A stretch of 64,000 nucleotides of DNA, taken from the NCBI GenBank assembly GCA_965203175.1, contig OZ241867.1:4960001-5024000 (forward strand), read 5' to 3'. The position numbers and the translations under genes were made by a program. This document shows, in pieces, positions 6,210 to 27,280 of this stretch. Under the pieces are notes generated by a model, which saw only the letters and a program-made list of their open reading frames with translations, did not search any database and was not told where the DNA came from. The first letter of the stretch is position 1; every line of letters starts with the position of its first letter. This stretch comes from Candidatus Latescibacterota bacterium. Its GTDB lineage: Bacteria > Latescibacterota > UBA2968 > UBA8231.

Positions 6210-7178
6210 TTAACGGGCACCTGTTGAAAGCAGCGCTTTGATCCGGCCCCACGACTGGGACTCGACGCTCGTCGAAGCAGCAGAAGGGGAAACCGGTTGC
6301 CAAGCAGGATAATCTCCGCCCAAGCCGTCGGTCAGATTGACCAAGTTGCTCCCGTCTATATCAACAACCCAAACCTCCTGGTCCCCCTGCTCGTTAGCGC
6401 CAGAGAAGGCAATTCTCATGCTGTCGGGCGACCAAGTAGGCTCAGGGGTGGCCGGTATAAACTGGCCGGGTTCAAGTTCAGCTTGTTGATAGGGTAGATC
6501 AGGAAGAGGAATCACCCGGAAATCTATCCGGTTCAGGAGATCTTCTATCGGCTCAGAAGGCTGCGGGACCTCACCGGGAGCGAAGATAGCTAGATATAGG
6601 TAGGCATCGCCCTCAGAGTCCTGCAATACGACATCTGCTAGTTTGGTTCCGTCTGGAGAAAGACCGCGATTATCGAGGGAACCTTTGACTATCCAAGCCG
6701 CTTCCCTCCAATCCATAAGTGAGGATCCACTGCCGTCCAGCGCCACAACGAACACTTCAGGGTTCCCTATGCGGTGCTTTATGAAGTAAATGAGACTTCC
6801 GTCTTCAGCCCAAACAAAATCCTCCGCATTTCCATATCCGGGATTTGTTAGAGATCCCATCTGTTGCGGATTGCCGCCGTCGGCGTCCATCACCCAGACG
6901 TCACCAATGGAATAATCGACCCCGACGGAAACGGGATCTTTACTAAAGGCGAGATAGGCGATCTTCGTGCCATCTGGAGACCAAGCAGGGTTAACGCAAC
7001 GCCCATGCCGACCTTGGGTTAAATTGACGGGATCGCTACCATCCGCATTCATAATCCACACGTCACCGGCCCCCTCGCGCCACGAAGCAAATGCGATTTT
7101 ACCGTCGGCTTGCCCCCAGCCAGCGACGGCCAGCCCCAGCGTTGCCAAGCAGACGAGCAGTAGGGATCGATAGGTCAT
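6210..7178 (-). CDS. Secreted TolB-like (PD40) beta-propeller protein, paralog 1
   Basis: Signal peptide; repeated WSPDGxKIAF/Y and IWVMDADG blades; C-terminal TSVESQSWGRIKALL. Confidence 0.85.
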   Translation of the reverse strand: MTYRSLLLVCLATLGLAVAGWGQADGKIAFASWREGAGDVWIMNADGSDPVNLTQGRHGRCVNPAWSPDGTKIAYLAFSKDPVSVGVDYSIGDVWVMDADGGNPQQMGSLTNPGYGNAEDFVWAEDGSLIYFIKHRIGNPEVFVVALDGSGSSLMDWREAAWIVKGSLDNRGLSPDGTKLADVVLQDSEGDAYLYLAIFAPGEVPQPSEPIEDLLNRIDFRVIPLPDLPYQQAELEPGQFIPATPEPTWSPDSMRIAFSGANEQGDQEVWVVDIDGSNLVNLTDGLGGDYPAWQPVSPSAASTSVESQSWGRIKALLSTGAR

Positions 7179-7240
7179 AACGTAACTCCTTTCATGGATT
7201 AATCGGTTTTTTCCTTTTTAATATATAGAAAAACCTCTGA

Positions 7241-7537
7241 CTACTCATCATCTATCCACGCCTGTAAGCCCCAGCTTTCCAACGACCTCTGTATAGAAGG
7301 AGCGAGTTGCTGGAAGCGCAAAGTCAGGCCCAGTTGCCCCAAACCGATTACGTCGCGTTCAAGCAATGGACTGATGCTCCGCACTTCGTTAGCCACTATA
7401 CAGACCTCCCTTACCCCCTCCCCGACATACGATTCCATGCAGTCGTGCAGGATATCGAACTCCGTCTTATTGATATACCCCATGAGTTCGATGGTTAAGG
7501 TTCGACCGCAGCGATTCAATGTGTTAATACGCACCAT
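7241..7537 (-). CDS. Small STAS-like domain protein
   Basis: 98 aa alpha/beta pattern (LTIELMGYI..VRSIS..SIQRSLESWGL); co-oriented within the array. Confidence 0.5.
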   Translation of the reverse strand: MVRINTLNRCGRTLTIELMGYINKTEFDILHDCMESYVGEGVREVCIVANEVRSISPLLERDVIGLGQLGLTLRFQQLAPSIQRSLESWGLQAWIDDE

Positions 7538-7571: not shown

Positions 7572-9692
7572 TCATGGGAGCTTAGTCGTCTTCTTGGCTT
7601 CTACCTGTCCGTCCACCTCGACCCGATAGAGATACACCCCGGCGGCCACGGCCTTGCCCGCCTCGTCGCGGCCATCCCAAGAAAAACGATGGCTGCCCGC
7701 CCCAAGCGGCCCCTGCCACAACTGCCGCACCCGACGACCCAACACATCATACACCGTCAACGACATCTGCGCCGCGTCTGTCGCCAAATCAAGGGGGAGC
7801 ACGACTGCCGGATTGAACGGATTGGGATAGCTGTCGCCCAGCCGATACTGGACCGGCCGCGCTGCCGTCGACGTCATCACCGCGGTCGCTGGCGCTCCCA
7901 CCGAACTCTTGAGCACCTGCACGCCGCCCAAGACGCTATTTAACACCACCAAGTCCACATCGCCGTCGCCATCCACATCCCCCGGTAGCACCTGTACCCC
8001 CTCGCCGACCAAACGATGCTGCTCCACCTCCTTAGTCGGATTCGCACCCCCACCCCATTCTACGAACACTCCAAAGCCCGAGGCGCGGTCCCCGCCGATA
8101 AATGCCCAATCCTCTACTCCATCGGCGTTCAGGTCGCGCACTACCACCGGTGAGCGCATAAACAGCCCATCATACAGCACCTTCTCCTCTACACCGCCCC
8201 CTAATCGGCTGCTCTGGACGGCAAGGCCCTTGGACCCTTCCCACCTGTTGCGTTCGAGCGGCGTGAGTAGGTCCACCTGCCCGTCGCCATCAAAATCACC
8301 CACTTGTAAAAGAGAAAAAAGAATGCCCGCCATATCGGCTGCGAAATCAAAGACTACCTCGCCCACCTCCGGCGCGTCGCCCAAGCGCCCTACCACCCAC
8401 CTGCCCACCCGGCCTCTCGGTGACCACAGCACGTCCAACTGCCCATCGCCGGTAAAGTCGCCCATCCGCGAGGGAAAATAGTTTTCGGTGACCGCCAACT
8501 GGGTGGCCGTCCACCCCTCCTGCTCGACCTCCCAGACCTCTAACGCTCTTTCTTCCTCCACCGTAAAGTCGGTTGTAAACAGTTCGACCCGGCCATCGCC
8601 ATCCCAATCCACCATATCCACCAGCCCGCGATCATTAATCTGCGTGAGCACCTCCATTTGCAGCTCCGGCCCAATAGACCAGACCGTTATTTCCCAATCT
8701 TTTCTTGTCGCGATCTCGTCTTGGCCATCGCCGGTCAAATCGCCGACGTGCAGATAATCGATCCCTTCTCCGATCCTCTTCTCGGTGTGCACCGTTTCAA
8801 AGGTCCCCCTCCCATCATTGAGGGCCATGACCCAGATGTTTACAAACGGAGGCGAGTGATAATTCTCCCAAGTGGAGAACAGGTCGAGATCGCCGTCCCC
8901 ATCTAAGTCCGTCAAGGCGGCAGCGCTCCTTCCTTTTAAGAAGGCGTCTAGTTCCGATATCAGGGGAGAGAAGACTGGGGGGGCGAAAAGTCCGGCTCCC
9001 TCAAAGCGGAAATACGCTACCGACGGCGGGACTAATTCCCCCGCTAACAGCTCTTCCTCGCCGGTCAACTCGATCCAGTCGATCTCAAACCACCCGACTA
9101 GCTCGTCCACCGGCCGGGACGCCCCCATCTCGCCCCACTCCAAGCGAAAATTCAGCCGAATATCTTGTAAAAGCCCCTCCCAAACCTCCCTGTCGTCCGG
9201 TGCGATCTCCCCGTCCGATTCGGGCAGTGTGAACTCCACTTCCTGCCATTCGGTGGTATAGACGAAGCCTCTTTGTCCTAAAATCCTAAACCGGCCCCCT
9301 AAACCCCAATACTCTGGATCATGACCCGGCTTCGTGAGGTTGTGCTCATTGGTCCAAGCCAGAGAAAAGGAACCGACCGTAGGACCATGATGGACCGTGC
9401 GGACCCGAGCCCGGACCCGGTCGAACAGGCCCGAATCATGGCCTATGATAGGCGAAATTACTTCGACACTCGGGCTAGGAAGCGCATCTCCGGCCATCGA
9501 GGGCGATACATCAATCGTCCATACGCCGTCTTCGACTACCCCCGGAAACAGGTTAAATTCAAACGTGCCGCCCCATCCATTGCCTGTTTTGGCGGCCCAT
9601 CCTTGCGTCGTCCCATCCTCGAAATCCCACGTCATCGCCTCGGCGAAACTGCTCCACAGCACAACGCATGCAATGCTAGCGAACCTCAACAT
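7572..9692 (-). CDS. Secreted CBM-like + FG-GAP/VCBS repeat + FlgD-Ig protein, paralog 1
   Basis: GGAGG RBS, signal peptide, multiple DxDGDGxxD motifs, C-terminal YPNPFNP...WDGRDEAG. Confidence 0.85.
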   Translation of the reverse strand: MLRFASIACVVLWSSFAEAMTWDFEDGTTQGWAAKTGNGWGGTFEFNLFPGVVEDGVWTIDVSPSMAGDALPSPSVEVISPIIGHDSGLFDRVRARVRTVHHGPTVGSFSLAWTNEHNLTKPGHDPEYWGLGGRFRILGQRGFVYTTEWQEVEFTLPESDGEIAPDDREVWEGLLQDIRLNFRLEWGEMGASRPVDELVGWFEIDWIELTGEEELLAGELVPPSVAYFRFEGAGLFAPPVFSPLISELDAFLKGRSAAALTDLDGDGDLDLFSTWENYHSPPFVNIWVMALNDGRGTFETVHTEKRIGEGIDYLHVGDLTGDGQDEIATRKDWEITVWSIGPELQMEVLTQINDRGLVDMVDWDGDGRVELFTTDFTVEEERALEVWEVEQEGWTATQLAVTENYFPSRMGDFTGDGQLDVLWSPRGRVGRWVVGRLGDAPEVGEVVFDFAADMAGILFSLLQVGDFDGDGQVDLLTPLERNRWEGSKGLAVQSSRLGGGVEEKVLYDGLFMRSPVVVRDLNADGVEDWAFIGGDRASGFGVFVEWGGGANPTKEVEQHRLVGEGVQVLPGDVDGDGDVDLVVLNSVLGGVQVLKSSVGAPATAVMTSTAARPVQYRLGDSYPNPFNPAVVLPLDLATDAAQMSLTVYDVLGRRVRQLWQGPLGAGSHRFSWDGRDEAGKAVAAGVYLYRVEVDGQVEAKKTTKLP

Positions 9693-9759
9693 GACATTAC
9701 CTCCATATTCCCCGCGATAGTCGCGGCGTGTGGTGATTGTGAGAGCTTGGACGACTCCC

Positions 9760-11823
9760 TCACAGGTTTTCCTCGATTTTCGCCACAACCTCATCAACGT
9801 CAAATACTCTCAAACGATCCTCCACAATCAGCCCTTGGGAATCCACCAGATAATACCGAGGAATGCCGCTCACATTATAGGCTTGCGCGACTTGCTCCGA
9901 GCGCACATGGACGCCTTTGATCTCGTGTTTGGCAATGGCCTGTTTCCAGGCTGCTTCATTCGCGTCTAACGAGATATTGAGGAAGACGACCGGCTGAGCG
10001 GCCACTTGCTCTTTGATCTTGCGGAGAGTCCCCAAATCGGCGATGCACGGTCCGCACCAACTCGCCCAGAAGTCCAGCAAGACCACTTTGCCTTTGAACT
10101 GGCTCAGCGATACAGATTGGCCATCGAGGTCATGGAGGGTGAAATCGGGCGCGGGTTGCCCCGGTTTCAGCATCGAGAGCTTGTTCAGTTCCGCTTGGAG
10201 AGCCTCGGTGTATTCGGGGAAGGGGTTGCTCTCTACAAAGGACCGCCAGCGGGCATCCACAAAGGCTTCGTTGTCGAAGCTAATTCCAAGCATCAAGTCT
10301 CTGGCCAGAGACCAATAGAGCACTCGCCCTTGCAGTCTTTGCTGGGCTAGGTCGTATCGTTCTGGAGTCCTGCGAAAAATTGGAAAACTCGGTCCGGCAA
10401 AGATGGAGTCGAGTTGGGCTTGGACGGCCTCCGATAGACCCAAGGCCGCTAAATCAATCCTCTCGGACAGTTTGGGCGGTGGACTGTTTTGGTACGCGAA
10501 GTACATGGAGTCGAGTTGGGCTTGGACGGCCTCCGATAACTCCAAATCCGACAAGTCAATCCATGCCGACAGCGGGCGATTATTTACGTATTCGTACCAC
10601 TCTCTATTTTTTGCCAGTGGCAAATGGAAGGTCAACTTCCCGTCCGTCGTATCGATCCTCGTGGTATCTTCCATGCCGAAGGTCATGTGATGATCCTCAT
10701 AAGAGTCGAGTTCGGCTAAGGCGGCTGGCGATAACTCCAAACCCAACCAAGCGGCCTTTTCGGACGCACTGATCTCTTTGTGGTTTTCGTACATGGAGTC
10801 GAGGCGGGCGTAGGCACTCTCCGCTAATCCCAGCCCCGCCAGATCAATCATCTGCGATAGTTTAGGGTGGGCGTGGGGTTGGATGTCCGCGTTGTACATG
10901 GAGTCGAGGCGGACGTGGACAGCGGGCGACAAACCCAACCCCGACAGCTTGTACCTATCGGCAAGCCTAGATGGCCTGTCCTCCTCCGCGTTATCCACCT
11001 CCAAGTCTAGCGCGTTCACCACAAACCAGCGATACTCCTGCACGCCAATAGCCTTTTCATTTATCAAGGGGATTTCTTGCAGGAAATCGTAGTAGTCCGG
11101 AGGAACTTCTCTTCTCTCGGAGGGTTTGACGTGGAATCGGCGCATCCAATGGCCGTCTCTAAACGCAAACATCGGATAGGAAATCATCAGATCGGCCCAC
11201 TTGTAGTTGAAAAAGGCCGTCATATAGTCGATGAATCCCGGAGAAAGCGCGTATTGCTCGCGCCCCTCGGCTAGCAAGGCAAATTCATCCTGCCGCCGCT
11301 GTTTGACTTGGCGCGTAAACGCCTCGGGCTCCAGCCCATTGTCTGGGTCGAAGGCATTGTGTTGCGGCCAGAACTCCGCTAAAAAGCGATTGTTATCCGC
11401 TCCCCGGCCGCTAAAAGCCAGGGTATAGGCGGGCGGGGCCTCCTCTTCGGCCGTGTCCAAACTGTCAGATTCCACTGCCGCCGCAGAATCGGTCTCCGTC
11501 ACCTCGGCGAAGGCTACGACCGCGTGTAGGCTGTCGCCGGGTTCGACAAAGAAGGGGATGCGGAAGTATCGCTCACCTCTGTAATACCCGGTGACGAAAG
11601 TTCCTTTGGCAATGTTCAAGTGCAGGGCAAAGCGGTTTTGCTCGTCCAAGACGATGTGGTGTTCGGACGGTCCGGGAGCGAGTAGGGGTTCGTGGTGGAA
11701 CGCGACATCCCGCGACGGAGGGTTGTGGACTTCGCCGGTGACGATTGCGGCGCGTGATGATTGGGCTAGCCCTACACTCGCTGTACTGAGCAGGGCGACG
11801 AGGATGCGAAGGTATCGATTCAT
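9760..11823 (-). CDS. Secreted TlpA-family thiol:disulfide oxidoreductase with internal helical repeats
   Basis: Signal peptide MNRYLRILVALL; C-terminal APDFTL..GKVVLLDFWASWCGPC..GIP. Confidence 0.85.
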   Translation of the reverse strand: MNRYLRILVALLSTASVGLAQSSRAAIVTGEVHNPPSRDVAFHHEPLLAPGPSEHHIVLDEQNRFALHLNIAKGTFVTGYYRGERYFRIPFFVEPGDSLHAVVAFAEVTETDSAAAVESDSLDTAEEEAPPAYTLAFSGRGADNNRFLAEFWPQHNAFDPDNGLEPEAFTRQVKQRRQDEFALLAEGREQYALSPGFIDYMTAFFNYKWADLMISYPMFAFRDGHWMRRFHVKPSERREVPPDYYDFLQEIPLINEKAIGVQEYRWFVVNALDLEVDNAEEDRPSRLADRYKLSGLGLSPAVHVRLDSMYNADIQPHAHPKLSQMIDLAGLGLAESAYARLDSMYENHKEISASEKAAWLGLELSPAALAELDSYEDHHMTFGMEDTTRIDTTDGKLTFHLPLAKNREWYEYVNNRPLSAWIDLSDLELSEAVQAQLDSMYFAYQNSPPPKLSERIDLAALGLSEAVQAQLDSIFAGPSFPIFRRTPERYDLAQQRLQGRVLYWSLARDLMLGISFDNEAFVDARWRSFVESNPFPEYTEALQAELNKLSMLKPGQPAPDFTLHDLDGQSVSLSQFKGKVVLLDFWASWCGPCIADLGTLRKIKEQVAAQPVVFLNISLDANEAAWKQAIAKHEIKGVHVRSEQVAQAYNVSGIPRYYLVDSQGLIVEDRLRVFDVDEVVAKIEENL

Positions 11824-11864: not shown

Positions 11865-13961
11865 TCATGGGAGTCTGGTCGTCTTCTTGGCTTCTATCTG
11901 TCCGTCCACTTCGACCTTGTAGATATACACCCCGGCGGCTACCCCCTTGCCCACCTCGTCGCGGCCATCCCAAGTAAAACGATGCGCACCCGCTCCGAGT
12001 GCCCCTTGCCACAACTGCCGCACCCGCCGTCCCAACACATCGTACACGGTCAACGACACCCCCGCCGCGTCCATCGCCAAATCAAGGGGGATCACTACAG
12101 CCGGATTGAACGGATTGGGATAGCTGTCGCCGAGCTGATATTCCGCCGGTCGAACTATCGTCGGCGTCTGCACTGCTGTCGGCTGCCCGCCCAGCGAACT
12201 TTTGAGCACATGCACCCCACCCAACAGCGGATCTAACACGACCAAGTCGAGATCGCCGTCGCTATCGACATCCCCGGAGAGCACTTCTACCCCATGGCCC
12301 TCTAGGCGATGCCTTTCCACGGCTCGCGTTGGATTCACGCCTCCGCCCCATTCGACAAATACCCCAAAGCCCGAGGCGCGGTCCCCACCGACAAACACCC
12401 AATCCTCTACCCCGTCGGCGTCCAAGTCGCGCACCATCACCGGCGAGCGCAGAAATAGCCGCTCGTCGTATAGTACTTCCTCTTCTACTACGCCCCCGGC
12501 TCCTCCTAGCTGTACGACCAAGCCCTTGAGGCCTTCGTATTGGACGCGGACGAGCGGCGTGAGCATATCTACTTGCCCATCGCCATCGAAATCGCCTACT
12601 CCTAACACCTCCTTCTCCGCATCGAATTCAAATATCTCACCTCTTTGAAGCTCGTCGCCCAAGGCCCCCACGATCCGCGTGTTCGCCTGCCCGTGGATCG
12701 GTAGCCACAGCACTTCCAGCATTCCATCACCCGTAAAGTCGCCGATCTGAGCGACCACATGGTTTTCAGCGGTAGCCACCTCGGAAGCGGTCCACATCCC
12801 GTTCTCTATATCCCAGACATCTAACGTGCTTCCTTCTAACGTAGCATGCCCTACAAACAACTCGACATCGCCATCGCCATCCCAATCCGCCATATCCCTC
12901 AACCAACGATCATCTATCTCGGTGAGCACTTCCAGTTGGAGGTCCGACTCAATGGACCAAACCTCGATCACGGCAATGATACGCCTATTCCCATGTTCAT
13001 CCTGCGTCACCTTGGCGAGTCGATACATCACTATTTCGTCCTTGCCATCGCCGGTCAAATCGCCGGCAAGCATCTCTATCGTCCCAGGATGGCCGACCTC
13101 CTCTGTGAGCACGGCCTCAAAGGTACCCTCGCCGTTATTGAGGGCCATGGTCCAGCCGCTTTCTTCTGTAACACTATCCCAAACACTATCCCAAGAGGCA
13201 AAAAGGTCTGCGTCGCCATCGCCATCCAAGTCCGTCAAGATGCCGGCCCTCTCTCCATAAGCTCCTACTCCCGGCGTAATCGGATAGAAAACCGGCGGGG
13301 CAAAAAATCCAGTCCCATCAAAGCGAAAGTACTCTACGTGCGGCGGGGGGAGTTCACCCTGTAGGAATTCTTCAACGCCGCTCAACTCAATCCAGTCAAT
13401 CTCAATCTCCCCAACCACATCGTCCTCGTTCCGATCTAGGATAAAATTCAGCCGAATATCCCTTAATAGACCCTCCCACATGACCTCGTCTTGGCCGATA
13501 AATGAAAACTCTATTTCCTGCCACTCAGTGGTGTAAACGAAATCTGTTTGTCCTGAAAGCTCAAATCGACTTTTGAACCGATTATCTGGGTCCTCACCCG
13601 GAGATATAAGGTTGTGCTCATTGGTCCAGGTGAGCCAAAAGGAACCGACCGTAGAGCTGTGATGTACGGTGCGGAATCGGATCCAGATCTGGTCGAACAG
13701 ATGCGAATCGTGCCCTATGGTGGGAGAAATCAATTTGACATTCGGCTTAGACCAATGCCCGGTGACTGAGGACGAGACATCGATCTTCCACACGCCGTCT
13801 GCGACTATACCGGGAAAAACGTCAAATTCACGCGGCCCACCCAATGTAAGAGTTTCTTTAGCGACCCATCCTTGCGTCATCCCATCGTCGAACTCCCAAA
13901 CGATCGCCTCGGCGAGGCTAGGCCACAGCGCAATCCACACAACAACGGCCAGCTTCAGCAT
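11865..13961 (-). CDS. Secreted CBM-like + FG-GAP/VCBS repeat + FlgD-Ig protein, paralog 2
   Basis: Same architecture as 7572-9692; GGAGG RBS. Confidence 0.85.
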   Translation of the reverse strand: MLKLAVVVWIALWPSLAEAIVWEFDDGMTQGWVAKETLTLGGPREFDVFPGIVADGVWKIDVSSSVTGHWSKPNVKLISPTIGHDSHLFDQIWIRFRTVHHSSTVGSFWLTWTNEHNLISPGEDPDNRFKSRFELSGQTDFVYTTEWQEIEFSFIGQDEVMWEGLLRDIRLNFILDRNEDDVVGEIEIDWIELSGVEEFLQGELPPPHVEYFRFDGTGFFAPPVFYPITPGVGAYGERAGILTDLDGDGDADLFASWDSVWDSVTEESGWTMALNNGEGTFEAVLTEEVGHPGTIEMLAGDLTGDGKDEIVMYRLAKVTQDEHGNRRIIAVIEVWSIESDLQLEVLTEIDDRWLRDMADWDGDGDVELFVGHATLEGSTLDVWDIENGMWTASEVATAENHVVAQIGDFTGDGMLEVLWLPIHGQANTRIVGALGDELQRGEIFEFDAEKEVLGVGDFDGDGQVDMLTPLVRVQYEGLKGLVVQLGGAGGVVEEEVLYDERLFLRSPVMVRDLDADGVEDWVFVGGDRASGFGVFVEWGGGVNPTRAVERHRLEGHGVEVLSGDVDSDGDLDLVVLDPLLGGVHVLKSSLGGQPTAVQTPTIVRPAEYQLGDSYPNPFNPAVVIPLDLAMDAAGVSLTVYDVLGRRVRQLWQGALGAGAHRFTWDGRDEVGKGVAAGVYIYKVEVDGQIEAKKTTRLP

Positions 13962-13999
13962 GACAGCACCTCCATACCGAACTCCGCAGGACGACTTCC

Positions 14000-14088: not shown

Positions 14089-14103
14089 GCACATTCCGTG
14101 CCA
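14089..14103 (-). promoter_or_regulatory. Sigma-54 -24/-12 promoter
   Basis: TGGCACGGAATGTGC matches TGGCACG-N4-TTGC except at one base; downstream of a sigma-54 activator gene. Confidence 0.8.
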
Positions 14104-14118
14104 GATACTACGCCTCGA

Positions 14119-14152
14119 ACAAAAAAACCCTTTAGGATCAACCTAAAGGGTT
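14119..14152 (-). terminator. Intrinsic terminator after activator gene 1
   Basis: AACCCTTTAGG-N5-CCTAAAGGGTT stem followed by T-run on the minus strand. Confidence 0.6.
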
Positions 14153-14226: not shown

Positions 14227-14303
14227 CACGACTTTCCGTGGACCGCGCACGACTTTTCGTGTTTTTCCACGACTTTTCGTGTTGACCGCCTACGACTTCT
14301 CCG
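14227..14303. promoter_or_regulatory. Tandem palindromic putative enhancer (UAS) sites
   Basis: CACGA-N4-TCGTG-like boxes at 14227, 14248, 14268 and a degenerate one at 14291; 20-23 bp spacing. Confidence 0.6.
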
Positions 14304-18802: not shown

Positions 18803-19741
18803 TCATGGGACTGCAAGCAGCGCTTTGATCTGTCCCCACGACTGGACTTCGACGCTCGTCGCAGCCGGGGTCGTCGGCTGCCAAGAGGGTTTGCGTCCAC
18901 CTAAACCGTTGGTCAAATTGACCAAGTTGCTCCCGTCTATATCAACAACCCAAATCTCATCGCCCCCTTGCTCGCTAGCAGCAGAGAAGGCGATTCTCAT
19001 GCTATCAGGCGACCAAGTAGTTGGGTCAGACATTCTCTCCCAGCCGGGTTCAAGTTCAGCTTGTTGATAGGGTAGATCGGGAAGGAGGATCTCCGAGAAA
19101 TCTTCTATCTGTTTAGAAGGCTGCGGCCCCTCACTGGGAGCGTAGCTAACTAGGCGTAGGTAGGCATTGCCCTCGTCGTCCTGCAACACGACTTCTGCTT
19201 GTTTGGTTCCGTCTGGAGAACGATTATCGCGGAAACGGCGGGCTATCCCAGCTCCCTCCTTCCAATCCACGGGTGAGGAGCCACTGCCGTCCAACTCCAC
19301 CGCGAACAGTTCATTGGGGGACCCCCTCCTATAGTAGTAAATGCGACTCCCGTCTTCAGCCCAAAAGATCTCTTCAAATCCGGATTCGGATCCGGGATCT
19401 ACTAGATATCCCACTTGTTGCGGATTGCCGCCATCGGCGTCCATCACCCAGATGGCACCTTGGGAATAATCGACATAGAGGACCCCATCGGAATCGAAAA
19501 GATCGTCAAAGGCGAGATAGGCGATCTTCGTGCCATCTGGAGACCAAGCCGGGCTAACGCACTGCAGATGTCGTCCTGGGGTTAAGTTGACGGGGACGCT
19601 CCCATCCGCATTCATAATCCACACGTCAGAACGCCCCTCGTGTCTGGAGAGAAATGCTATTTTACCGTCGGCTTGCCCCCAGCCAGCGACGGCTAGCCCC
19701 AGTGTTGCCAAGCAGACGATCATTAGGGAGCGATAGTTCAT
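18803..19741 (-). CDS. Secreted TolB-like (PD40) beta-propeller protein, paralog 3
   Basis: AGGAGG RBS, MNYRSL start; PD40 blades; SWGQIK tail. Confidence 0.85.
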   Translation of the reverse strand: MNYRSLMIVCLATLGLAVAGWGQADGKIAFLSRHEGRSDVWIMNADGSVPVNLTPGRHLQCVSPAWSPDGTKIAYLAFDDLFDSDGVLYVDYSQGAIWVMDADGGNPQQVGYLVDPGSESGFEEIFWAEDGSRIYYYRRGSPNELFAVELDGSGSSPVDWKEGAGIARRFRDNRSPDGTKQAEVVLQDDEGNAYLRLVSYAPSEGPQPSKQIEDFSEILLPDLPYQQAELEPGWERMSDPTTWSPDSMRIAFSAASEQGGDEIWVVDIDGSNLVNLTNGLGGRKPSWQPTTPAATSVEVQSWGQIKALLAVP

Positions 19742-19804: not shown

Positions 19805-19819
19805 GCACATTCCGTGCCA
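19805..19819 (-). promoter_or_regulatory. Sigma-54 -24/-12 promoter
   Basis: TGGCACGGAATGTGC, identical to 14089-14103 and 23941-23955. Confidence 0.75.
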
Positions 19820-19868: not shown

Positions 19869-20870
19869 CTACGGACGAGGCGAGATTGACGGGGAACCCG
19901 TTGAAAGCAGCGATTTGATCCGGCCCCACGACTGGGACTCGACGCTCGTAGAGGAAGGAACGACAGGTTGCCAAGCGGGAGAATGTCCACCTAAACCGTT
20001 AGTCAATTCGACTAGGTTGCTCCCGTCTATATCAACGGCCCAAATGAAATCGGTGAAATCAGAGAAGGCTATTCTCATGCTGTTGGGTGCCCAAGTATGG
20101 AAAAACAGCCATGTGTCGTCGGACACGCACACACCGTCCTGGCCATACCAAGTGCGAAACGAGTCTGGGGACTCGCGCACGCACAGACCACTCTGGTCTA
20201 GGTCCGGTAGAGGGATAACCGAAAGCTCGGCTCTGATACGCTGAAGAAAAACCGAGGCATCGACTCCTCTGCTGGTAGGCTCATGAAAAATAGAGAAAAC
20301 CGAGGGCTCATTTTCTCTAACATCGCTGACGTAGAAGCGGGCGAGGTTCACTTCGTCTCCTTTTTCCCGCAGCACGACAACGGCTTCTTTAGTCCCGTCC
20401 GGGGAACGATTGTGGCCGTTGTAGGGCGCCTCTCTCCAGTCCACGGGCGAGGAGCCACTGCCGTCTAGCGCCATGACAAACGTACTAGTACTAGTAGTCC
20501 ACTCGGTATAGTAAATGCTACTTCCATCTGCAGACCACGAAAGACGTATTCTATCGACTGAATCGTCTGTTAGCTGCTGTGGATTGCCGCCATCGGCATC
20601 CATCAACCAAATCTCTCCACCATACTGATCATCGTCAAAAACATCGCTGATATAGGCGATCTTCGCGCCATCCGGGGACCAAGCCGGGCTAATGCAATCC
20701 CGTCCTTGGGTTAGATTTACGGGATCGCTCCCATCCGCATTCATAATCCACACGTCACCGTGCCCCTCGCGGTCGGAGATAAATGCTATTTTACTGTCGG
20801 CTTGCCCCCAGCCAGCGACGGCCAGCCCCAGCATTGCCAAGCAGACGAGCAGTAGGGATCGATAGCTCAT
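19869..20870 (-). CDS. Secreted TolB-like (PD40) beta-propeller protein, paralog 4
   Basis: AGGAG RBS, MSYRSL start; PD40 blades; SWGRIK tail with short extension. Confidence 0.85.
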   Translation of the reverse strand: MSYRSLLLVCLAMLGLAVAGWGQADSKIAFISDREGHGDVWIMNADGSDPVNLTQGRDCISPAWSPDGAKIAYISDVFDDDQYGGEIWLMDADGGNPQQLTDDSVDRIRLSWSADGSSIYYTEWTTSTSTFVMALDGSGSSPVDWREAPYNGHNRSPDGTKEAVVVLREKGDEVNLARFYVSDVRENEPSVFSIFHEPTSRGVDASVFLQRIRAELSVIPLPDLDQSGLCVRESPDSFRTWYGQDGVCVSDDTWLFFHTWAPNSMRIAFSDFTDFIWAVDIDGSNLVELTNGLGGHSPAWQPVVPSSTSVESQSWGRIKSLLSTGSPSISPRP

Positions 20871-20939: not shown

Positions 20940-22940
20940 TTATGGGAGCTTGGTCGTCTTTTTCGCTTCCACCTGTCCGTCCACCTCGACCCGATAGATA
21001 TACACCCCAGCGGCTACTGCCTTCCCCGCCTCATCGCGGCCATTCCAAGCAAGACGATGGCTACCCGCCCCAAGCGGCCCCTGCCACAACTGCCGCACCC
21101 GACGACCCAACACATCGTACACCGTCAACGACATCTGCGCCGCGTCTGTTGCCAAATCAAGGGGGATCACGACAGCCGGATTGAACGGATTGGGATAGCT
21201 GTCGCCGAGCCGATACTGCGTCGGTCGAACCATCGTCGGCGTCTGCACGGCCGTCGGCTGCCCGCTCAGCGAATTCTTGAGCACATGCACCCCGCCCAGT
21301 ATCGGATCTAACACCACCAAATCGAGATCGCCGTCGCTATCTATATCCCCGGAGAGCACGTGGGTACCACTTCCCTGCAGACGATGCCGCTCCCCTGCTT
21401 GGGTAGGATGGCCCCCCCCACTCCATTCGACAAACACCCCAAAGCCCGACGCGCGGTCTCCACCGATAAACACCCAGTCCTCAACCCCATCGGCGTTTAG
21501 ATCGCGTACCATCACCGACGAGCGGAGGAACAGCCGATCATCATATAATACCTCTGCGACTTCTAGGCCGCCTCCGGCGCTCTTACTCTTCAAGACCAGC
21601 CCCTTACGACCTTCAAATTGATCGTGTGTGAACTCTGTGACGAAATCCATCTGCCCATCGCCGTCAAAATCTACCATTTCTTCGCCCCCCACAATCAGCG
21701 TGTTCGGCCACAATATGTCTAGTAATGACCCATCGCCGATAAGGTCGTCGGTCTCCACCTCCTCGTAAGTCCGCACGCCCTGTTCTATATACCATATCTC
21801 GCCTTCTTCAAAAGCAATATCTTTTACATATAATTCACCCCGTCCGTCGTCATTCCAATCAACCACAGCCACGAGCCATCTATCCTCGATCTGTACCAGC
21901 ACCTCGACTTGGAGTGCCGGCCCGATAGACCAAACTTCTATCATCTGCTCTTCTTCCCCATTCCAGCGGGGATATATCACGATTTCGTCTTGACCATCGC
22001 CGGTCAAGTCAGCACCTACCACACCTAAGTATGACCTAGCGACCACCGTTGAGTAATCACCTGTGGCCTCTACCTCTATAGGTCCCAGTTCCAACGCACC
22101 TTGTCCGTCATTGAGTGCCATCAGCCATCCAGCTTTATCCTCAGGCCACCCTCCGTTGTAATCTTTAAAATAAAAGAAGGCGAAAAGGTCTAGTGCCCCA
22201 TCGCCATCCAAATCCGTCAAGACACCAGCCACATCACTCGCCTTTTCTCCCCCTATGCCCCGCGCAATCGGATAGAAAACCGGCGGGGCAAAAAGTCCGA
22301 CCTCATCAAAGCGAAAGTACTCCACGGGTGGAGGAGGCAGGTCTCCCTGTGCGAGCTCTTCCTCACCGGTCAACTCAATCCAGTCAATCTCCAACCATTC
22401 GACCGTCTCTGCCGACGGGTCCCCATCATCCAGTGAAAAACTGAGCTGAATATCTTTTAACCAGCCCTCCCAATCGTCTTGACCTGCTAACGAGAACACT
22501 ACTTCCTTCCACTCAGTGGTATAGACTGGTGCTTCTCGAGAGACGATTCTAAACGGGTATCTAGATAGCTGTTCGAAATCCCGCATGTTGTGCTCGTTGG
22601 CCCACTCCATCGTAAAACCACCACTACCAACCGTAGGGCGGTCGGTGCGGAACCGGATGCGGACTTGGTCGAACAGACCCGAATCGTACCCAATGGTAGG
22701 AGAAACCAACTCGACAGTCGTCCAAGAGTAGTAACTCTTGGTGACGGAGGGCGCGACCGCAATCCTCCACACGCCATCTTCGACCTCCCCTGGAAACAGG
22801 TGCAATTCACGCTTACCACCCCACAAAAAAGCCTCTTTGGCAGACCACCCCTGCGCCGTCCCATCGTCGAACTCCCACGTGATCGCCACGGCAGGACCGC
22901 TCCATAGCATCGCGCATACAACAACGGAGAATTTCAACAT
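20940..22940 (-). CDS. Secreted CBM-like + FG-GAP/VCBS repeat + FlgD-Ig protein, paralog 3
   Basis: Same architecture as 7572-9692; GGAGG RBS. Confidence 0.85.
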   Translation of the reverse strand: MLKFSVVVCAMLWSGPAVAITWEFDDGTAQGWSAKEAFLWGGKRELHLFPGEVEDGVWRIAVAPSVTKSYYSWTTVELVSPTIGYDSGLFDQVRIRFRTDRPTVGSGGFTMEWANEHNMRDFEQLSRYPFRIVSREAPVYTTEWKEVVFSLAGQDDWEGWLKDIQLSFSLDDGDPSAETVEWLEIDWIELTGEEELAQGDLPPPPVEYFRFDEVGLFAPPVFYPIARGIGGEKASDVAGVLTDLDGDGALDLFAFFYFKDYNGGWPEDKAGWLMALNDGQGALELGPIEVEATGDYSTVVARSYLGVVGADLTGDGQDEIVIYPRWNGEEEQMIEVWSIGPALQVEVLVQIEDRWLVAVVDWNDDGRGELYVKDIAFEEGEIWYIEQGVRTYEEVETDDLIGDGSLLDILWPNTLIVGGEEMVDFDGDGQMDFVTEFTHDQFEGRKGLVLKSKSAGGGLEVAEVLYDDRLFLRSSVMVRDLNADGVEDWVFIGGDRASGFGVFVEWSGGGHPTQAGERHRLQGSGTHVLSGDIDSDGDLDLVVLDPILGGVHVLKNSLSGQPTAVQTPTMVRPTQYRLGDSYPNPFNPAVVIPLDLATDAAQMSLTVYDVLGRRVRQLWQGPLGAGSHRLAWNGRDEAGKAVAAGVYIYRVEVDGQVEAKKTTKLP

Positions 22941-22956
22941 GACATCACCTCCCAAC

Positions 22957-23898
22957 CTAACGGGTACCCGTTGAAAGCAGCGCTTTGATCCGTCCCCATG
23001 ACTGGACTTCGACGCTCGTGGCAGTAGCAGAAGGAGAAACTGGTTGCCAAGCGGGACTAGCTCCGTCCAAGCCGTTGGTCAGATTGACCAAGTTACTCCC
23101 GTCTATATTAACAACCCAAACTCCCCGGTACCCTTGCTCGTCATTGGCAGTGAAGGCGATTCTCATGCTGTCAGGCGACCAAGTAGGGTCGCGATCCATT
23201 CTCTCGTAGCCGGGTTCAAGTTCAGCTTGTTGATAGGGTAGATCAGGAAGGAGAATCTCCGAGAAATCCTCTATCTGGTTGGAAGGATACGGCCCCTCAG
23301 TGGGAGCGAAGACAACTAGGCGTAGGTAGGCATTGCCCTCTCCGTCCTGCAACACGACGGTTGCTCGTTTGGTTCCGTCTGGAGAGCGATCGAGGGAACG
23401 ACGGACTATCCCAGCCGCATCCCTCCAGTCCATAAGTGAGGAGCCACTGCCGTCCAGCGGCACAACGAACAGTTCATAGCGGGGATGCTGCACGTAGTAG
23501 TAAATGTTACTTCCGTCTTCAGCCCAAAAAAGCTCCTTAGACATGGTCTCTCCTATACTGGTCTCTGGTAGAGATGCCACTTGTTGCGGATTGCCGCCAT
23601 CGGCGTCCATCACCCAGATATCGGCAACGGAATAATCGGCCCAGGCGGAATCGGGATCGGCACTAAAGGCGAAATAGGCGATCTTCGTGCCATCTGGAGA
23701 CCAAGACTGTCTAATGCAATGGGCATGCCGACCTTGGGTTAAGTTGACGGGGGCGCTCCCATCCGCATTCATAATCCACACGTCACCGGCCCCCTCGCGC
23801 CACGAAGTAAATGCTATTTTACCGTCGGCTTGCCCCCAGCCAGCGACAGCCAGCCCCAGCGTTGCCAAGCAGACGATTAGTAGGGATCGATAGCTCAT
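22957..23898 (-). CDS. Secreted TolB-like (PD40) beta-propeller protein, paralog 5
   Basis: AGGAG RBS, MSYRSL start; PD40 blades; SWGRIK tail. Confidence 0.85.
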   Translation of the reverse strand: MSYRSLLIVCLATLGLAVAGWGQADGKIAFTSWREGAGDVWIMNADGSAPVNLTQGRHAHCIRQSWSPDGTKIAYFAFSADPDSAWADYSVADIWVMDADGGNPQQVASLPETSIGETMSKELFWAEDGSNIYYYVQHPRYELFVVPLDGSGSSLMDWRDAAGIVRRSLDRSPDGTKRATVVLQDGEGNAYLRLVVFAPTEGPYPSNQIEDFSEILLPDLPYQQAELEPGYERMDRDPTWSPDSMRIAFTANDEQGYRGVWVVNIDGSNLVNLTNGLDGASPAWQPVSPSATATSVEVQSWGRIKALLSTGTR

Positions 23899-23940: not shown

Positions 23941-23955
23941 GCACATTCCGTGCCA
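23941..23955 (-). promoter_or_regulatory. Sigma-54 -24/-12 promoter
   Basis: TGGCACGGAATGTGC, downstream of activator paralog 2. Confidence 0.8.
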
Positions 23956-23972: not shown

Positions 23973-24001
23973 AAAAAAGTTCTTTAGGAATACCCTAAAG
24001 G
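23973..24001 (-). terminator. Intrinsic terminator after activator gene 2
   Basis: CTTTAGG-N5-CCTAAAG stem then T-run on the minus strand; homologous to 14119-14152. Confidence 0.5.
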
Positions 24002-24078: not shown

Positions 24079-24157
24079 CACGTTTTTTCGTGCAATCTGA
24101 ACGACTTTCCGTGCAATCTGAACGACTTTCCGTGTTGGCCGCCTACGACTTCTTCGG
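24079..24157. promoter_or_regulatory. Tandem palindromic putative enhancer (UAS) sites
   Basis: Boxes at 24079, 24100, 24121, 24144 (21/21/23 bp spacing), including a 21-bp tandem duplication GTGCAATCTGAACGACTTTCC. Confidence 0.6.
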
Positions 24158-27100
24158 TCGGCGCAACCCGTACTTCCTCATGCGATAGCGCAGCTTCTCT
24201 GGGCTCATCCCCAACAAATGCGCCGCACCCCGCTCGCCGTATATCATCCAGTTAGTCGCTTGCAGAGCCTCCACAAGCTGCTGCTTTTCATCCAAGCCTT
24301 CGCCAGCCGCTGGCGCGGGTGGCCCTGCATCTCCAGACCGCCGCGCAACCGACGGCAGCAGCAAATCACCAACGCGTATCACCCCACCCTCGCACAGCAA
24401 CACCGCCCGATGGATCAGGTGCTCCAACTCGCGCACATTCCCCGGCCAAGCATACCCCTGCAAGTGCGCGACCACCCCCTCGTCTAAGGTCGGTGCCGGA
24501 CGTCGCAGATGCTGGGCATACCGCTCGGCAAAATGTGCCGCCAAAGCCGGGATATCCTCTTGCCGCTGACGCAGAGGTGGAAGCTCTAGCGTGAAGACAC
24601 TCAGACGGTAGAACAGGTCTTCGCGGAACGTGCCCTCTTGGATGGCCTGTCGCAAGTCGCGGTTCGTCGCCGCGATGACCCGCACATCCACGCGCACAGG
24701 CTGCTCGCCGCCGACGCGGGTCAAGGCATTCTCCTCTAAGATGTGCAGCAGCACCCGCTGAGACTCCAACGGCAAATCGCCGATCTCGTCCAGAAAGAGG
24801 GTGCCGCCATCGGCCAGTTCAAAGCGGCCGAGTTGACGGCTCGCCGCCCCGGTAAAAGCCCCCTTCTCGTGGCCGAATAACTCGCTTTCGATCAACCCAG
24901 CCGGCAGTGCCCCGCAATTGACTTGGATGAAAGGCCGCTTGCGGCGAGTGCTTGTCTCGTGGATGGTCTGCGCCAATAAGCCCTTGCCCGTGCCGGTCTC
25001 GCCCAGCACCAGCACAGTCATCGCCGTCTCAGCGACGAGCACGGTCTGCTCCATCACTTGGCGCATCGCCCAACTCTCGCTATGTACGACGTGGTCGGCC
25101 GCACGCAGAAAGTTTTCAAAAGCGTGGATGCGTTCGGTTTTAGCGTCGGGGAGGATCTGAATCTCCAGGCTGGCGACCTCCGACAGCAAACCATCGCGGT
25201 CCATCGTCCTCACCTCAAAGTGGTACTCGCCCACCGGCAGGGAGCTATACACGACCTCATCGGCGACCGTAAACGCACTCCACTGTTCCGTCGGATCGTG
25301 CCCTAACAGCCGGTGGCTGTAGCGCATCTGTCCCGCGCCGGTGCGGAAACTGATGCCTTGGAAGTGAATGCGGATTTCCGGGGTGCTTTCTGGGCAGGAT
25401 ACAGCTTCGGGCGCGGTCAAGAGGGTGCCGGCCATGACCTCGCGGATGACCAAGCGCGGCGGCGTGTGTCCCGGCTGGTAGGCAACCAGCCCCGCCCGCG
25501 TGCCAAACCACAGCCGACCGCGCCGGTCGCACAGGACGGCTTCGACCATGTTGTCGAGGGCAGACGGCCCCAAGCGGATGCTTTGGAAGGTCTCGCCATC
25601 GTAGCGAAGGACGCCGCCGCCGCTGGTGCCCATCCAAATATGGCCCTCCGAGTCGGCCGTCAGCGCCAAGATGCCATTGGCTGACAGCCCAAACTGTTCG
25701 GCGGTAAAGTGGCGCACCTTCCGCGATGAGAGATCAAGGGCGAACAATCCCTTAGCCGTACCCACCCACAGGGTGTTTTGGTGCTCCCATAAGATGTTGA
25801 CATAGGCGATGGACTCCGCTTCGGCCATATCCGCTGGGCGCAAGCGATCATCCTCGTAACAGTAGAGTGCCGGGACTTCTCCGTATAAACCCATCCAGAG
25901 TACACCGTCTCGGTCTTGCAACAACGATCCGACCCAGAATACCCTGTCTTGATCTTGCAGCAAGGTGCCACATTCATCAAGGGGAATAAAGTGATTTTCC
26001 CCTATCCAGCCGAAGCGACCGGTGGACGTACCGACCCAGATACGCCCTTGTCCATCTCCGCATAGCCCAGTGATTGTTTCTGGATGGGTCTCTTCGGCCA
26101 CGGAGATCGCTTGTGGCGTTTGGCCCTCCCACTTGTACACCTTGCCCGTATCCCCGCTACTCCAGACCTGTCCCTGGCCATCCACCACCATCGCCCAGAC
26201 GGTTTCCCCCGTCTTGACCGGACGGACTTGCCCTTCTTCCATATAGGCCATGCCCCCCATCGTGCCAATCCACATCCGACCCTCATGGTCTTCTCCCAAG
26301 TGGCGAATCTCGCGGTCGGGCAGGCCATCGGCTTCCGTGTAGCGACGGATGCTAGTCGGGTCACAAAAAATCAGTCCACCACCCCAAAGTCCAATCCAGA
26401 TATTGCCCTCGCGGTCTTCGTACGTCAGACGCGTAAGCGAAAAGTCAATATCTGGCAAAGAAGCAGAAAAGGACTGCCACTCCTGCCCGTCGTGTACCAT
26501 CACGCCTCGGTGGGTCAGCCAGAGCCAGCCCCTCTCGTCAGTCCGCACGTGCCGCGTCCCGCTCTGCGCCACTCCTTCGTCGCCCTTGCCCGCATTAATG
26601 CACGCAACCTGTTGGTCCCGTGGATCATAGCGGCCGATCAAGACTTCGCTACTTGAGTAACCGAAGGCGATCCACAGATGGCCGGAGGAGTCTTGGGCAA
26701 ATTTCCAAGGCCATTGGCCCGCCTCCTCGCCGATACCCATACCCATATACCGCCCATCCAAGCTGAGGACGCCTTGACCCACCGTCGCCAGCCAAGTAGT
26801 ACCACTCGCGTCAGTAGCCATGTCGTACACGCGCCCCAACGGTTGGCCGCCAACATCGGTTATACTCCTTATGCAGCGGCCCTCGGCAAACCAAGCCACG
26901 CCCGCGCCCGTCAACGCCAAAATCGAGCCGTCCGGCTGAGCTTGCAGGCCCACAATCTCATTGGAAGGTAGGCCGTGCTCAGTGGTGTACACCTGAAAAT
27001 CGCGCCCGTCATAGGCGGCAATCCCACCGCCGAACGTGCCGAACAAAAGCCGACCGTCCGCGTCTTCGGCAATGGCCATGACCGTCAGATTGGGCAGACC

Positions 27101-27280
27101 GTCCTTGAGGCTAAACGTATCGAACCGGGCACTGTCGAACCGGCTGACGCCCCCGTCGGCCGTGGCGACCCAGAGAAAACCCTGGCGATCTTGGTAGATG
27201 TCTTCCACGTGCATCCCAGCCAGCCCATCAAAAACAGTGTACTGATTGCTCAACACGTGCTCAAAGGATAGGTCGCTCAT
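24143..27280 (-). CDS. Sigma-54-dependent activator: Reg_prop beta-propellers + Y_Y_Y + AAA+ + HTH, paralog 2
   Basis: Co-linear paralog of 14336-17461 with intact GAFTGA and Walker motifs. Confidence 0.92.
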   Translation of the reverse strand: MSDLSFEHVLSNQYTVFDGLAGMHVEDIYQDRQGFLWVATADGGVSRFDSARFDTFSLKDGLPNLTVMAIAEDADGRLLFGTFGGGIAAYDGRDFQVYTTEHGLPSNEIVGLQAQPDGSILALTGAGVAWFAEGRCIRSITDVGGQPLGRVYDMATDASGTTWLATVGQGVLSLDGRYMGMGIGEEAGQWPWKFAQDSSGHLWIAFGYSSSEVLIGRYDPRDQQVACINAGKGDEGVAQSGTRHVRTDERGWLWLTHRGVMVHDGQEWQSFSASLPDIDFSLTRLTYEDREGNIWIGLWGGGLIFCDPTSIRRYTEADGLPDREIRHLGEDHEGRMWIGTMGGMAYMEEGQVRPVKTGETVWAMVVDGQGQVWSSGDTGKVYKWEGQTPQAISVAEETHPETITGLCGDGQGRIWVGTSTGRFGWIGENHFIPLDECGTLLQDQDRVFWVGSLLQDRDGVLWMGLYGEVPALYCYEDDRLRPADMAEAESIAYVNILWEHQNTLWVGTAKGLFALDLSSRKVRHFTAEQFGLSANGILALTADSEGHIWMGTSGGGVLRYDGETFQSIRLGPSALDNMVEAVLCDRRGRLWFGTRAGLVAYQPGHTPPRLVIREVMAGTLLTAPEAVSCPESTPEIRIHFQGISFRTGAGQMRYSHRLLGHDPTEQWSAFTVADEVVYSSLPVGEYHFEVRTMDRDGLLSEVASLEIQILPDAKTERIHAFENFLRAADHVVHSESWAMRQVMEQTVLVAETAMTVLVLGETGTGKGLLAQTIHETSTRRKRPFIQVNCGALPAGLIESELFGHEKGAFTGAASRQLGRFELADGGTLFLDEIGDLPLESQRVLLHILEENALTRVGGEQPVRVDVRVIAATNRDLRQAIQEGTFREDLFYRLSVFTLELPPLRQRQEDIPALAAHFAERYAQHLRRPAPTLDEGVVAHLQGYAWPGNVRELEHLIHRAVLLCEGGVIRVGDLLLPSVARRSGDAGPPAPAAGEGLDEKQQLVEALQATNWMIYGERGAAHLLGMSPEKLRYRMRKYGLRRPKKS

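Follow-up and report, generated by a model that had tools for sequence, protein, structure and literature searches.

A stretch of 64,000 nucleotides from a Candidatus Latescibacterota bacterium (contig OZ241867.1, positions 4,960,001 to 5,024,000; the whole stretch is called the window below) carries at positions 6210-27280 an array of 12 genes, all on the minus strand as judged from the listing of open reading frames (ORFs) and from Pfam. With a probability of about 0.72, this array is made up of two neighbouring units of a sigma-54 regulon that is lineage-specific and present in many copies. The two activators are predicted to be one-component bacterial enhancer-binding proteins (bEBPs), each with a cytoplasmic sensor that is homologous to the double-propeller/Y_Y_Y glycan sensor of Bacteroides hybrid two-component systems and is joined directly to a sigma-54 AAA+ motor and a Fis-type helix-turn-helix. 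The proposed regulatory chain, leading from the sensor through the AAA+ domain, the enhancer and the sigma-54 promoter to exported cargo, appears well supported by the anatomy of the genes, by recurrence of the arrangement and by covariation of activator and site. We infer in addition what kind of signal is sensed, that induction takes place, that the cargo sits at the cell surface and that it serves to bind glycans or host matrix in a sponge.

The array reads, in order, activator 2, sigma-54 promoter, TolB-like 5, FG-GAP 3, TolB-like 4, sigma-54 promoter, TolB-like 3, TolB-like 2, hairpin, activator 1, sigma-54 promoter, FG-GAP 2, TlpA-like, FG-GAP 1, STAS and TolB-like 1; all of these features lie on the minus strand. 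A preliminary description had given this gene order, the strand and the domain calls, and all were borne out by the ORF listing and Pfam. The promoters, enhancer-like repeats, terminator-shaped hairpins and duplication scar that it reported were likewise all located at the array. With regard to ORF starts, those that overlap promoters (19810 and 23946) did not stand; the true starts (19741 and 23898), which have good Shine-Dalgarno sites, did.

Propeller-sensor activators

Activator 2 (24143..27280, 1045 aa) is composed of two Reg_prop propellers, a Y_Y_Y domain, a sigma-54 AAA+ domain with the GAFTGA loop, and HTH_8; activator 1 (14336..17461, 1041 aa) has the same architecture. The Pfam matches of activators 1 and 2 are strong for both Reg_prop (4e-45 and 5e-44) and Sigma54_activat (PF00158; 1e-69 and 3e-69), and are joined by matches to Y_Y_Y, AAA_lid_14 and HTH_8. 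The two proteins are 89% identical overall; their AAA+ domains agree most closely (96%) and their propellers least (83-87%). The features expected of a bEBP were all found: an AAA+ domain with GAFTGA (present in both translations), HTH_8 together with candidate upstream sites, and an rpoN gene together with GG-N10-GC promoters. The NifA, NorR and NtrC models of NCBIfam match the activators, all below their equivalog cut-offs, and the database annotation is "sigma 54-interacting transcriptional regulator".

Neither activator contains a hydrophobic segment, transmembrane helix or signal peptide (the maximal 19-residue Kyte-Doolittle means are 1.29 and 1.46), and the whole protein is therefore predicted to be cytoplasmic. 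This result, the GAFTGA loop and the single rpoN gene of the genome uphold the earlier proposal of cytoplasmic propeller-sensor activators. The sensor region of activator 1 matches solved sensor domains of Bacteroides hybrid two-component systems (HTCS), with values of 2.7e-48 for 3v9f and 4.9e-40 for 4a2l. The solved sensor domains of this kind bind oligosaccharides.

The module downstream of the activator genes

Besides eight full-length activator paralogs (63-89% identity), the genome, a single 6.58-Mb contig, encodes a split copy and two distantly related proteins (~30-44%). The same module follows all nine close copies, the split one included, and was not found at the two distant relatives. 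It runs from the activator stop codon through three tandem palindromes, a GC-rich box, an AT-rich tract, a hairpin (CCTTTAGG..CCTAAAGG) with a T-run and a spacer of ~22 nt to the sequence TGGCAC-N5-xTGC. In the copies where the tandem-repeat script located all three repeats, their centre lies ~145-170 nt upstream of the GG.

Within the array, a motif scan places identical copies of the -24/-12 element TGGCACGGAATGTGC at 14089..14103 (promoter 1), 19805..19819 (promoter 2) and 23941..23955 (promoter 3). One-mismatch matches to TGGCACGGAATGTGC number 13 in the window versus 4.9 expected, some of them being a coding repeat inside TolB-like genes and not promoters. The form TGGCACG-N4-GTGC also adjoins other, unrelated bEBP genes of the genome, and it is therefore the ordinary sigma-54 promoter form of this organism. 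Three copies of the repeat unit CACGRAAAGTCGT(G), spaced ~21 nt apart, lie upstream of each of promoters 1 and 3. Those of promoter 1 are the tandem palindromes CACGRAAAGTCGTG at 14228..14281 (period ~20-21), and those of promoter 3 are the tandem CACG-N-CGT repeats at 24080..24134 (period 21); both are putative enhancers (upstream activating sequences), as suggested by repeat analysis and by the covariation described below.

Between repeats and promoter there is in each case a terminator-shaped hairpin. That of promoter 1 (14126..14152) has 11 bp followed by T7, lies 22 nt upstream of the -24 element and folds with -16.2 kcal/mol (z -4.3). The hairpin of promoter 3 (23982..24000), CTTTAGG/CCTAAAG with a T-run, is weaker (z -1.8), lies ~26 nt upstream of the -24 element and is a probable terminator of the activator transcript. 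Promoter 2 has a degenerate hairpin and may be an orphan core promoter or a relic of duplication. A further trace of duplication lies upstream of activator 1, where positions 17600..17690 retain the last part of an activator gene, a single degenerate repeat and the GC box and lack the hairpin and promoter; this truncated post-activator module is a duplication scar. The hairpin that follows TolB-like 2 (17739..17774; -29.3 kcal/mol, z -4.5) is GC-rich and without a T-run. A consensus scan for sigma-70 promoters and terminators gave matches at chance level overall, and an IHF-like site in the AT-rich tract was sought by eye only, with none claimed.

An argument that the repeats are bound by the activator comes from covariation. 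The analysis covered 58 distinct activator 3' ends from paralogs that are 57-91% identical, with palindromes detected by regular expression. Among the 31 activators with the recognition helix PEKLRYR, 19 are followed by CACG-N5-7-CGTG palindromes and none by the TACG type. The 25 with the helix LRSR show TACG..CGTA in 14 cases, GACG in two and CACG in none. The half-site thus tracks a residue of the helix-turn-helix (HTH) domain with no crossovers, and because of this the repeats are read as activator sites. That one residue of the recognition helix follows one base of the half-site is good indirect evidence that the repeats would serve as the enhancer sites of the activator. Activators 1 and 2 may act on each other's promoters, because both belong to the CACG class and have nearly the same helix. 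By analogy with NtrC-type activators, three dimer sites two helical turns apart would fit the assembly of a hexamer.

The hairpin was surveyed in 168 distinct contexts upstream of -24/-12-like matches. A perfect stem of at least six pairs with a T-run occurs in 57 of these, nearly all of the CTTTAGG type; the loops measure 4-8 nt, and the GG is 21-26 nt away in 55 cases. Changes in the outer stem are paired (AATCC in 29, AAGCC in five, AACCC in two, AATTC in two, and others). Because pairing of the outer stem is kept through these changes and the distance is nearly fixed, a structural element is favoured. The simplest reading is that the hairpin acts as an intrinsic terminator of the activator transcript, which would shield the sigma-54 promoter from read-through.

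Recurrence in the genome and among relatives

The association of activator, promoter and cargo drawn from the array in the preliminary description recurs at every paralog in this genome and in relatives. One locus is a 27-kb cluster with two activators, nine TolB-like and three FG-GAP genes. Elsewhere in the genome the close copies are arranged as activator-promoter-TolB-like, as activator-TlpA-like-STAS, and as split activator-FG-GAP-TlpA-like. At the last of these (L090, G000:C1:3320001-3329000) the activator is interrupted by an internal TAG and lies in two frames; the repeat-hairpin-promoter module is intact, with the FG-GAP and TlpA-like genes downstream. A paralog at genome position 1061511 (L088, G000:C1:1061001-1075000) is 62% identical and has its own AACG..CGTT-type repeats, hairpin and promoter; it precedes five secreted ORFs, of which the three scanned all have a redoxin fold, one with tetratricopeptide repeats. 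A distant relative (L089, G000:C1:4324001-4338000; ~33-44% identical) has the same domain order without the conserved module, and is followed by a leucine-rich repeat (LRR) protein, two GSDH-propeller proteins with type IX secretion system (T9SS) tails and an FG-GAP protein. Its subfamily has thousands of database relatives.

A first cross-genome set comprised 14 loci, drawn from 12 further species-level genomes within the genus. FG-GAP, TolB-like, TlpA-like or STAS genes follow on the same strand after 15 of the 17 full-length activators in this set, and a -24/-12 match lies in the gap after 12 of the 17. Among named public records, titled "Candidatus Latescibacterota bacterium" or, in older ones, "Gemmatimonadetes bacterium", cargo follows 42 of the 48 full-length activators with enough flank. 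Tabulating neighbours in this way had been suggested as a check on the preliminary description, and the same cargo at 15/17 and 42/48 activators of relatives speaks against unrelated neighbourhoods. The comparison of cassettes that it had also suggested showed that their order and number vary from species to species across the 12 genomes, the cargo families being the same. The simplest arrangement is in a 4.2-Mb genome with a single activator match (G004, locus L013), which reads activator-promoter-FG-GAP-FG-GAP-STAS; this is likely to be the core unit.

The full-length activator family was found only in the window's own genus, with partial matches of 30-42% in other families of the class. An activator match at E <= 1e-20 is present in 23 of 24 other genus genomes, four of these matches (G015, G016, G017 and G024) being distant and partial with best E of 1e-28 to 1e-33. 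At E <= 1e-25, 17 of 21 genus genomes contain the TolB-like family, as against none of 129 genomes that belong to other genera in the phylum. It is missing from exactly those four genus genomes in which no close activator occurs. The system thus appears confined to one uncultured genus. Related sequence occurs in an RNA library labelled coral metagenome and in several unlabelled runs, and named relatives bear isolate names in the style of sponge studies, which gives a weak hint that the genus is sponge-associated. In the RNA run X1, 5% of sampled words were present, and its contigs, which are 90-97% alike and mostly 90-95%, come from relatives.

So repetitive a region might in principle reflect assembly collapse or a chimera of repeated genes. 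This explanation is highly improbable and was rejected, since the genome is a single contig, contigs of run X2 span positions 12106-15184 (enhancer and promoter 1) and other junctions with 0 differences (X2 may be the source sample), and comparable arrays occur in 12 further species-level genomes as well as in named Latescibacterota records. Parts of the stretch left uncovered in X1 or X2 carry no meaning. Metagenome contigs from two runs join cassettes otherwise within window positions 6305-23982, connecting for example 7543 to 9755 (without FG-GAP 1) and 19844 to 23982 (joining two hairpin modules). These joints hint at gain and loss of cassettes between strains, other strains or repeats being possible sources at the 90% likeness threshold.

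Paralogous repeats within the array were confirmed, with ends that are 85-92% identical in DNA and middles that are only 60-70% identical. Such mosaic paralogs could be taken to mean that the array is a variable library of surface proteins, in which propellers diversify by cassette recombination to escape recognition by phage or host and the sigma-54 switch is a generic on/off device. The conserved blade cores and variable loops and inserts of the TolB-like proteins, the species-to-species differences in cassette number and order, the alternative joints and the module scars all fit this idea. The joints come, however, from short-sided contigs at 90% likeness and may reflect other strains or repeats, and no gene for an invertase or recombinase and no diversity-generating element came to light in the array (no search was aimed at these). 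Diversification and regulated expression are, moreover, mutually compatible. As an explanation in place of the sigma-54 regulon, the library is possible and on the whole rather unlikely.

Exported cargo

Every product of the array except the activators and the 98-aa STAS-fold protein has a signal peptide at its N-terminus, as read in the sequence. This and an FG-GAP tail above the T9SS cut-off agree with the earlier view that the propeller proteins are exported. FG-GAP 1 (7572..9695), FG-GAP 2 (11865..13964) and FG-GAP 3 (20940..22943) encode proteins of ~670-710 aa, in which Pfam recognises FG-GAP/FG-GAP_3 repeats and, at the C-terminus, a FlgD_ig/Por_Secre_tail region. The product of FG-GAP 3, for example, would consist of a signal peptide, an N-domain resembling carbohydrate-binding modules (CBMs), an FG-GAP/VCBS propeller and a FlgD_ig/T9SS tail. 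The tail of FG-GAP 1 passes the NCBIfam model for the T9SS type A sorting domain, TIGR04183 (30.6 vs 23 bits); Pfam Por_Secre_tail is below its cut-off in all three proteins. The N-domain of ~200 aa has its best Protein Data Bank (PDB) matches in CBM4, 11, 22, 28 and 15 (template modelling (TM) score ~0.5 to target), a weak Pfam match to CBM_17_28 and Atlas leads of 0.84-0.86, below 0.9. These are weak pointers to a CBM-like beta-sandwich.

The T9SS machinery test covered PorU, SprA and PorV, with GldKLMN outside the search. PorU (632 bits) and SprA (618 bits) are both above cut-off, and a PorV-like gene adjoining PorU (147 bits) is below it. The FG-GAP proteins probably reach the cell surface through T9SS, judging from these genes and from the tails. 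The Sec and T9SS genes (PorU, SprA, PorV-like) lie elsewhere in the genome, and the array is thus not the self-contained system that had been supposed. The cargo may bind surface glycans or host matrix, as adhesins, lectins or host factors.

The five TolB-like genes are TolB-like 5 (22957..23898), 4 (19869..20870; Pfam and NCBIfam), 3 (18803..19741), 2 (17787..18755) and 1 (6210..7178; Pfam and NCBIfam), the last gene of the array. They encode proteins of 312-333 aa with PD40 repeats; TolB-like 5, for instance, is a predicted secreted PD40 propeller with a C-terminal SWGRIK tag (see below). Aligned paralogs conserve the blade motifs and vary in loops and inserts. An identity as true TolB was rejected, with scores of 83 and 73 bits against an equivalog cut-off of 343 bits and matches to the propeller only.

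The TlpA-like gene (9760..11823) encodes a 687-aa protein with a signal peptide, an N-region of ~490 aa and a C-terminal Redoxin/AhpC-TSA domain with WCGPC (Redoxin 6e-23), which scores below the TlpA and ResA equivalog cut-offs. The N-region has no family match in Pfam or NCBIfam. Five tandem repeats of ~100 nt at window positions 10403-10965 translate into five ~34-aa repeats (L-x-LGLS-x-A-x-A-x-LDSMY). The preliminary description had assigned to this protein the role of a dedicated disulfide oxidoreductase. That assignment failed, and a dedicated disulfide-forming helper was rejected, because the mature FG-GAP proteins contain no Cys and most mature TolB-like proteins, with 1-3 Cys, offer no pair. 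One Cys (residue 61 of the product of 6210-7178) is invariant in nine of nine aligned TolB-like paralogs. TolB-like genes often lie beside exported thioredoxin-fold genes, and a thiol-based link is possible.

The array might accordingly be viewed as an envelope redox or stress regulon that responds to an oxidative or thiol signal, with exported thioredoxin-fold proteins as the key outputs and propellers as accessories. TlpA-like genes do recur in arrays, the paralog at 1061511 is followed by redoxin folds in 3/3 of the secreted ORFs scanned, and the single Cys of the mature TolB-like proteins is invariant. Yet the genome with a single activator match and several diverged loci carry only FG-GAP and STAS cargo, with no redoxin, and the sensor fold is without any link to redox sensing. 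A redox regulon is correspondingly quite improbable.

The 98-aa STAS-fold protein

The gene at 7241..7537 encodes a 98-aa protein, predicted to be cytoplasmic, that is the only non-exported product of the operon. It has no match in Pfam or NCBIfam, and its family profile gives only a chance match against PDB sequences. According to its AlphaFold model, whose predicted local distance difference test (pLDDT) score is 87.5, it is a STAS-fold protein, with RsbV and SpoIIAA as top Foldseek matches (TM score 0.69-0.81); an Atlas match of 0.89, below 0.9, is a lead only. The family is tiny (18 representatives in 1.8 billion), and most homologs have a Ser at the start of helix 2. Two ~930-aa proteins (P0133 and P0135) align with the 98-aa protein over 5-7 separate stretches, as though composed of partial repeats of it.

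That the sole cytoplasmic product has an RsbV/SpoIIAA-like fold raises another interpretation of the sensor, namely that the propeller is a docking platform for proteins and that a partner (the STAS-fold protein or another) sets activity in a circuit resembling a partner switch. Propellers often bind proteins, and a STAS gene is present even in the genome with a single activator match (L013). Against this, the genome has two STAS genes vs nine activators, the arrays showed neither a GHKL kinase gene nor one for a PP2C phosphatase (a genome-wide search was not made), and we know of no precedent for a STAS protein that controls a bEBP. Complex prediction with the activator 1 sensor (residues 1-720) gave a score of 0.02 vs a mark of 0.32, which speaks neither for nor against binding. 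On balance, control by docking is an unlikely explanation.

A C-terminal tag on secreted proteins

Of the 87 matches to the motif [ST]WG.[IVLM]K in ORFs of at least 100 aa across the genome, 86 fall 9-20 residues before the stop codon. The consensus of the tag is T-A/S-V-E-x3-S/T-W-G-R/Q-I/V-K-x2-F/L. Most of the 86 carriers have a hydrophobic N-terminus resembling a signal peptide, and a few do not. Carriers include CBM9-like, Cache, HmuY-like and Temptin_C proteins and all five TolB-like proteins of the window, where a motif scan places the tag at 6210-6270, 17787-17850, 18803-18860, 19869-19950 and 22957-23020. No transmembrane helix follows the tag, no Pfam or NCBIfam model covers it, and no description of the motif strings was found in print. 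It looks like a candidate sorting or recognition signal.

Proposed mechanism and its weighing

In the model that these data suggest, the activator gene would be transcribed alone, and its transcript would stop at the conserved hairpin and T-run. A cytoplasmic ligand, which we guess to be an imported oligosaccharide or a related metabolite, would occupy the sensor. Three activator dimers would then occupy the three palindromes, two helical turns apart, between the activator stop codon and the hairpin, and would assemble into a hexamer that opens the sigma-54 promoter ~150 bp downstream. The operons would thereupon express Sec-exported cargo, namely FG-GAP/VCBS propellers that bear a CBM-like N-domain and end in a T9SS type-A tail, and small tagged PD40 propellers. 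The TlpA-like thiol reductase and the cytoplasmic STAS-fold protein would be co-expressed, and the latter may feed back on the switch.

Several points weigh against this model. Promoter starts, site binding and ligand are all predictions from sequence, and the ligand is guessed from homology to periplasmic glycan sensors only, the domain lying here in another compartment. A clean palindrome, as defined by the regular expression, is absent from 23 of the 58 activator 3' ends, and a -24/-12 match is absent within the ~470 nt scanned downstream of 15 of the 58 activators. Promoter 2 has no enhancer repeats. The core of the hairpin is invariant and could conceivably be a protein-binding palindrome instead of a terminator. 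The model of the FG-GAP N-domain is mediocre (pLDDT 68.7). The compared genomes are kin, and the counts of recurrence overstate independence. Finally, X1 contigs cannot show 5' ends or transcription, and may include DNA.

A more far-reaching version of the sigma-54 regulon can be formulated and is offered tentatively, as rather doubtful. A double-propeller glycan sensor of the Bacteroides type would have moved to the cytoplasm, become wired to a sigma-54 motor and radiated in one genus of sponge symbionts into up to a dozen switches per genome with at least two DNA-recognition classes (a single Tyr/Ser change, CACG vs TACG). Each switch would display its own surface propeller-lectin cassette via T9SS and the short C-terminal tag (T-A/S-V-E-x3-S/T-W-G-x-I-K, ~86 secreted proteins). 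The result would be a sense-and-display system, akin to a polysaccharide utilisation locus, for life in an animal matrix.

Other features of the window

The activator genes and the flanks have a G+C content of ~0.60, compared with 0.535-0.544 in window positions 18000-24000, the TolB/FG-GAP part of the array. Rfam gave no match in 5500-28500, and no tRNAs were found in the window. Secreted and glycan-related genes are frequent around the array (2833-5013, 29070-30647, 33106-34602, 39149-41203, 43654-46086, 46099-48423 and 51035-52798). The neighbourhood contains another FlgD_ig-tailed protein, a sulfatase, a GH32 protein, an LRR protein, a GSDH-type propeller with a T9SS tail and a discoidin-domain protein with a T9SS tail, as well as a 587-aa protein with an N-terminal sigma-70 domain of the extracytoplasmic function type.

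Relation to known systems

The closest known relatives of the sensor are found in the Bacteroides HTCS that control polysaccharide utilisation loci (sensors 3v9f, 4a2l/4a2m and 3ott/3va6), whose Reg_prop and Y_Y_Y region is homologous (E 2.7e-48 to 1.2e-26). In both cases the regulator lies beside secreted or surface proteins that it presumably controls. The activators described here differ in that they are predicted to be cytoplasmic, without signal peptide or transmembrane segment, and have a sigma-54 AAA+ motor as output; HisKA, HATPase, receiver and AraC domains are absent from them in Pfam. Unlike a polysaccharide utilisation locus, the array has no SusC/SusD-like family and no glycan-degrading enzymes among the Pfam matches of its 12 genes; the sulfatase and GH32 genes lie 2-7 kb outside it.

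One-component bEBPs with ligand-binding N-domains are well known from the XylR/DmpR, NorR and FhlA type. They share with the present activators the layout of sensor, AAA+ domain with GAFTGA, HTH_8, tandem upstream sites and -24/-12 promoter. To our knowledge, the double propeller with Y_Y_Y is not among the sensor domains of characterised bEBPs; the present family also differs in having nine copies per genome (eight whole and one split) and two HTH/site classes. The FG-GAP proteins resemble the T9SS type-A cargo of Bacteroidota in that they pass TIGR04183 and that the genome encodes PorU, SprA and a PorV-like protein; they differ in belonging to the phylum Latescibacterota and in having a FlgD_ig-like tail. 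We know of no case in which a sigma-54 activator controls T9SS cargo. The TolB-like proteins share PD40 beta-propeller repeats with TolB of the Tol-Pal system, but are ~100 aa shorter, lack its N-terminal domain, reach up to 14 matches per genome and carry the SWGRIK tag.

For metagenome-assembled genomes of sponge-symbiont Latescibacterota, the accessible part of one paper lists repeat-rich "eukaryotic-like" proteins, among them WD40, NHL, PQQ and LRR (PMC12993501). Habitat and the repeat/propeller theme are shared with the present system, in which an LRR protein follows a distant activator paralog. In the portion available, that paper does not contain the terms sigma, TolB, propeller or type IX, and describes no regulatory unit.

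The preliminary description had stated that no system of such make-up was known, and none was found in print. In particular, the literature yielded no description of a propeller-sensor bEBP, of its regulon or of its cargo set, nor of an enhancer placed between stop codon and terminator or of two recognition classes. Each part comes from a known family; the combination, a bEBP regulon with an HTCS-type sensor, was not found described.

Such a regulon would bring a sensor of a new class to the enhancer-binding proteins and would show the re-use of a periplasmic glycan sensor in the cytoplasm. The natural pairs of activator and site, in which one residue goes with one base, would be useful for studies of specificity and for orthogonal sigma-54 switches. 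The C-terminal tag, which occurs throughout the genome, may be the mark of a sorting route not recognised so far. For sponge symbiosis, a bare list of repeat proteins would give way to a defined and regulated set of genes that encode surface propellers, redoxins and secreted proteins with the tag.

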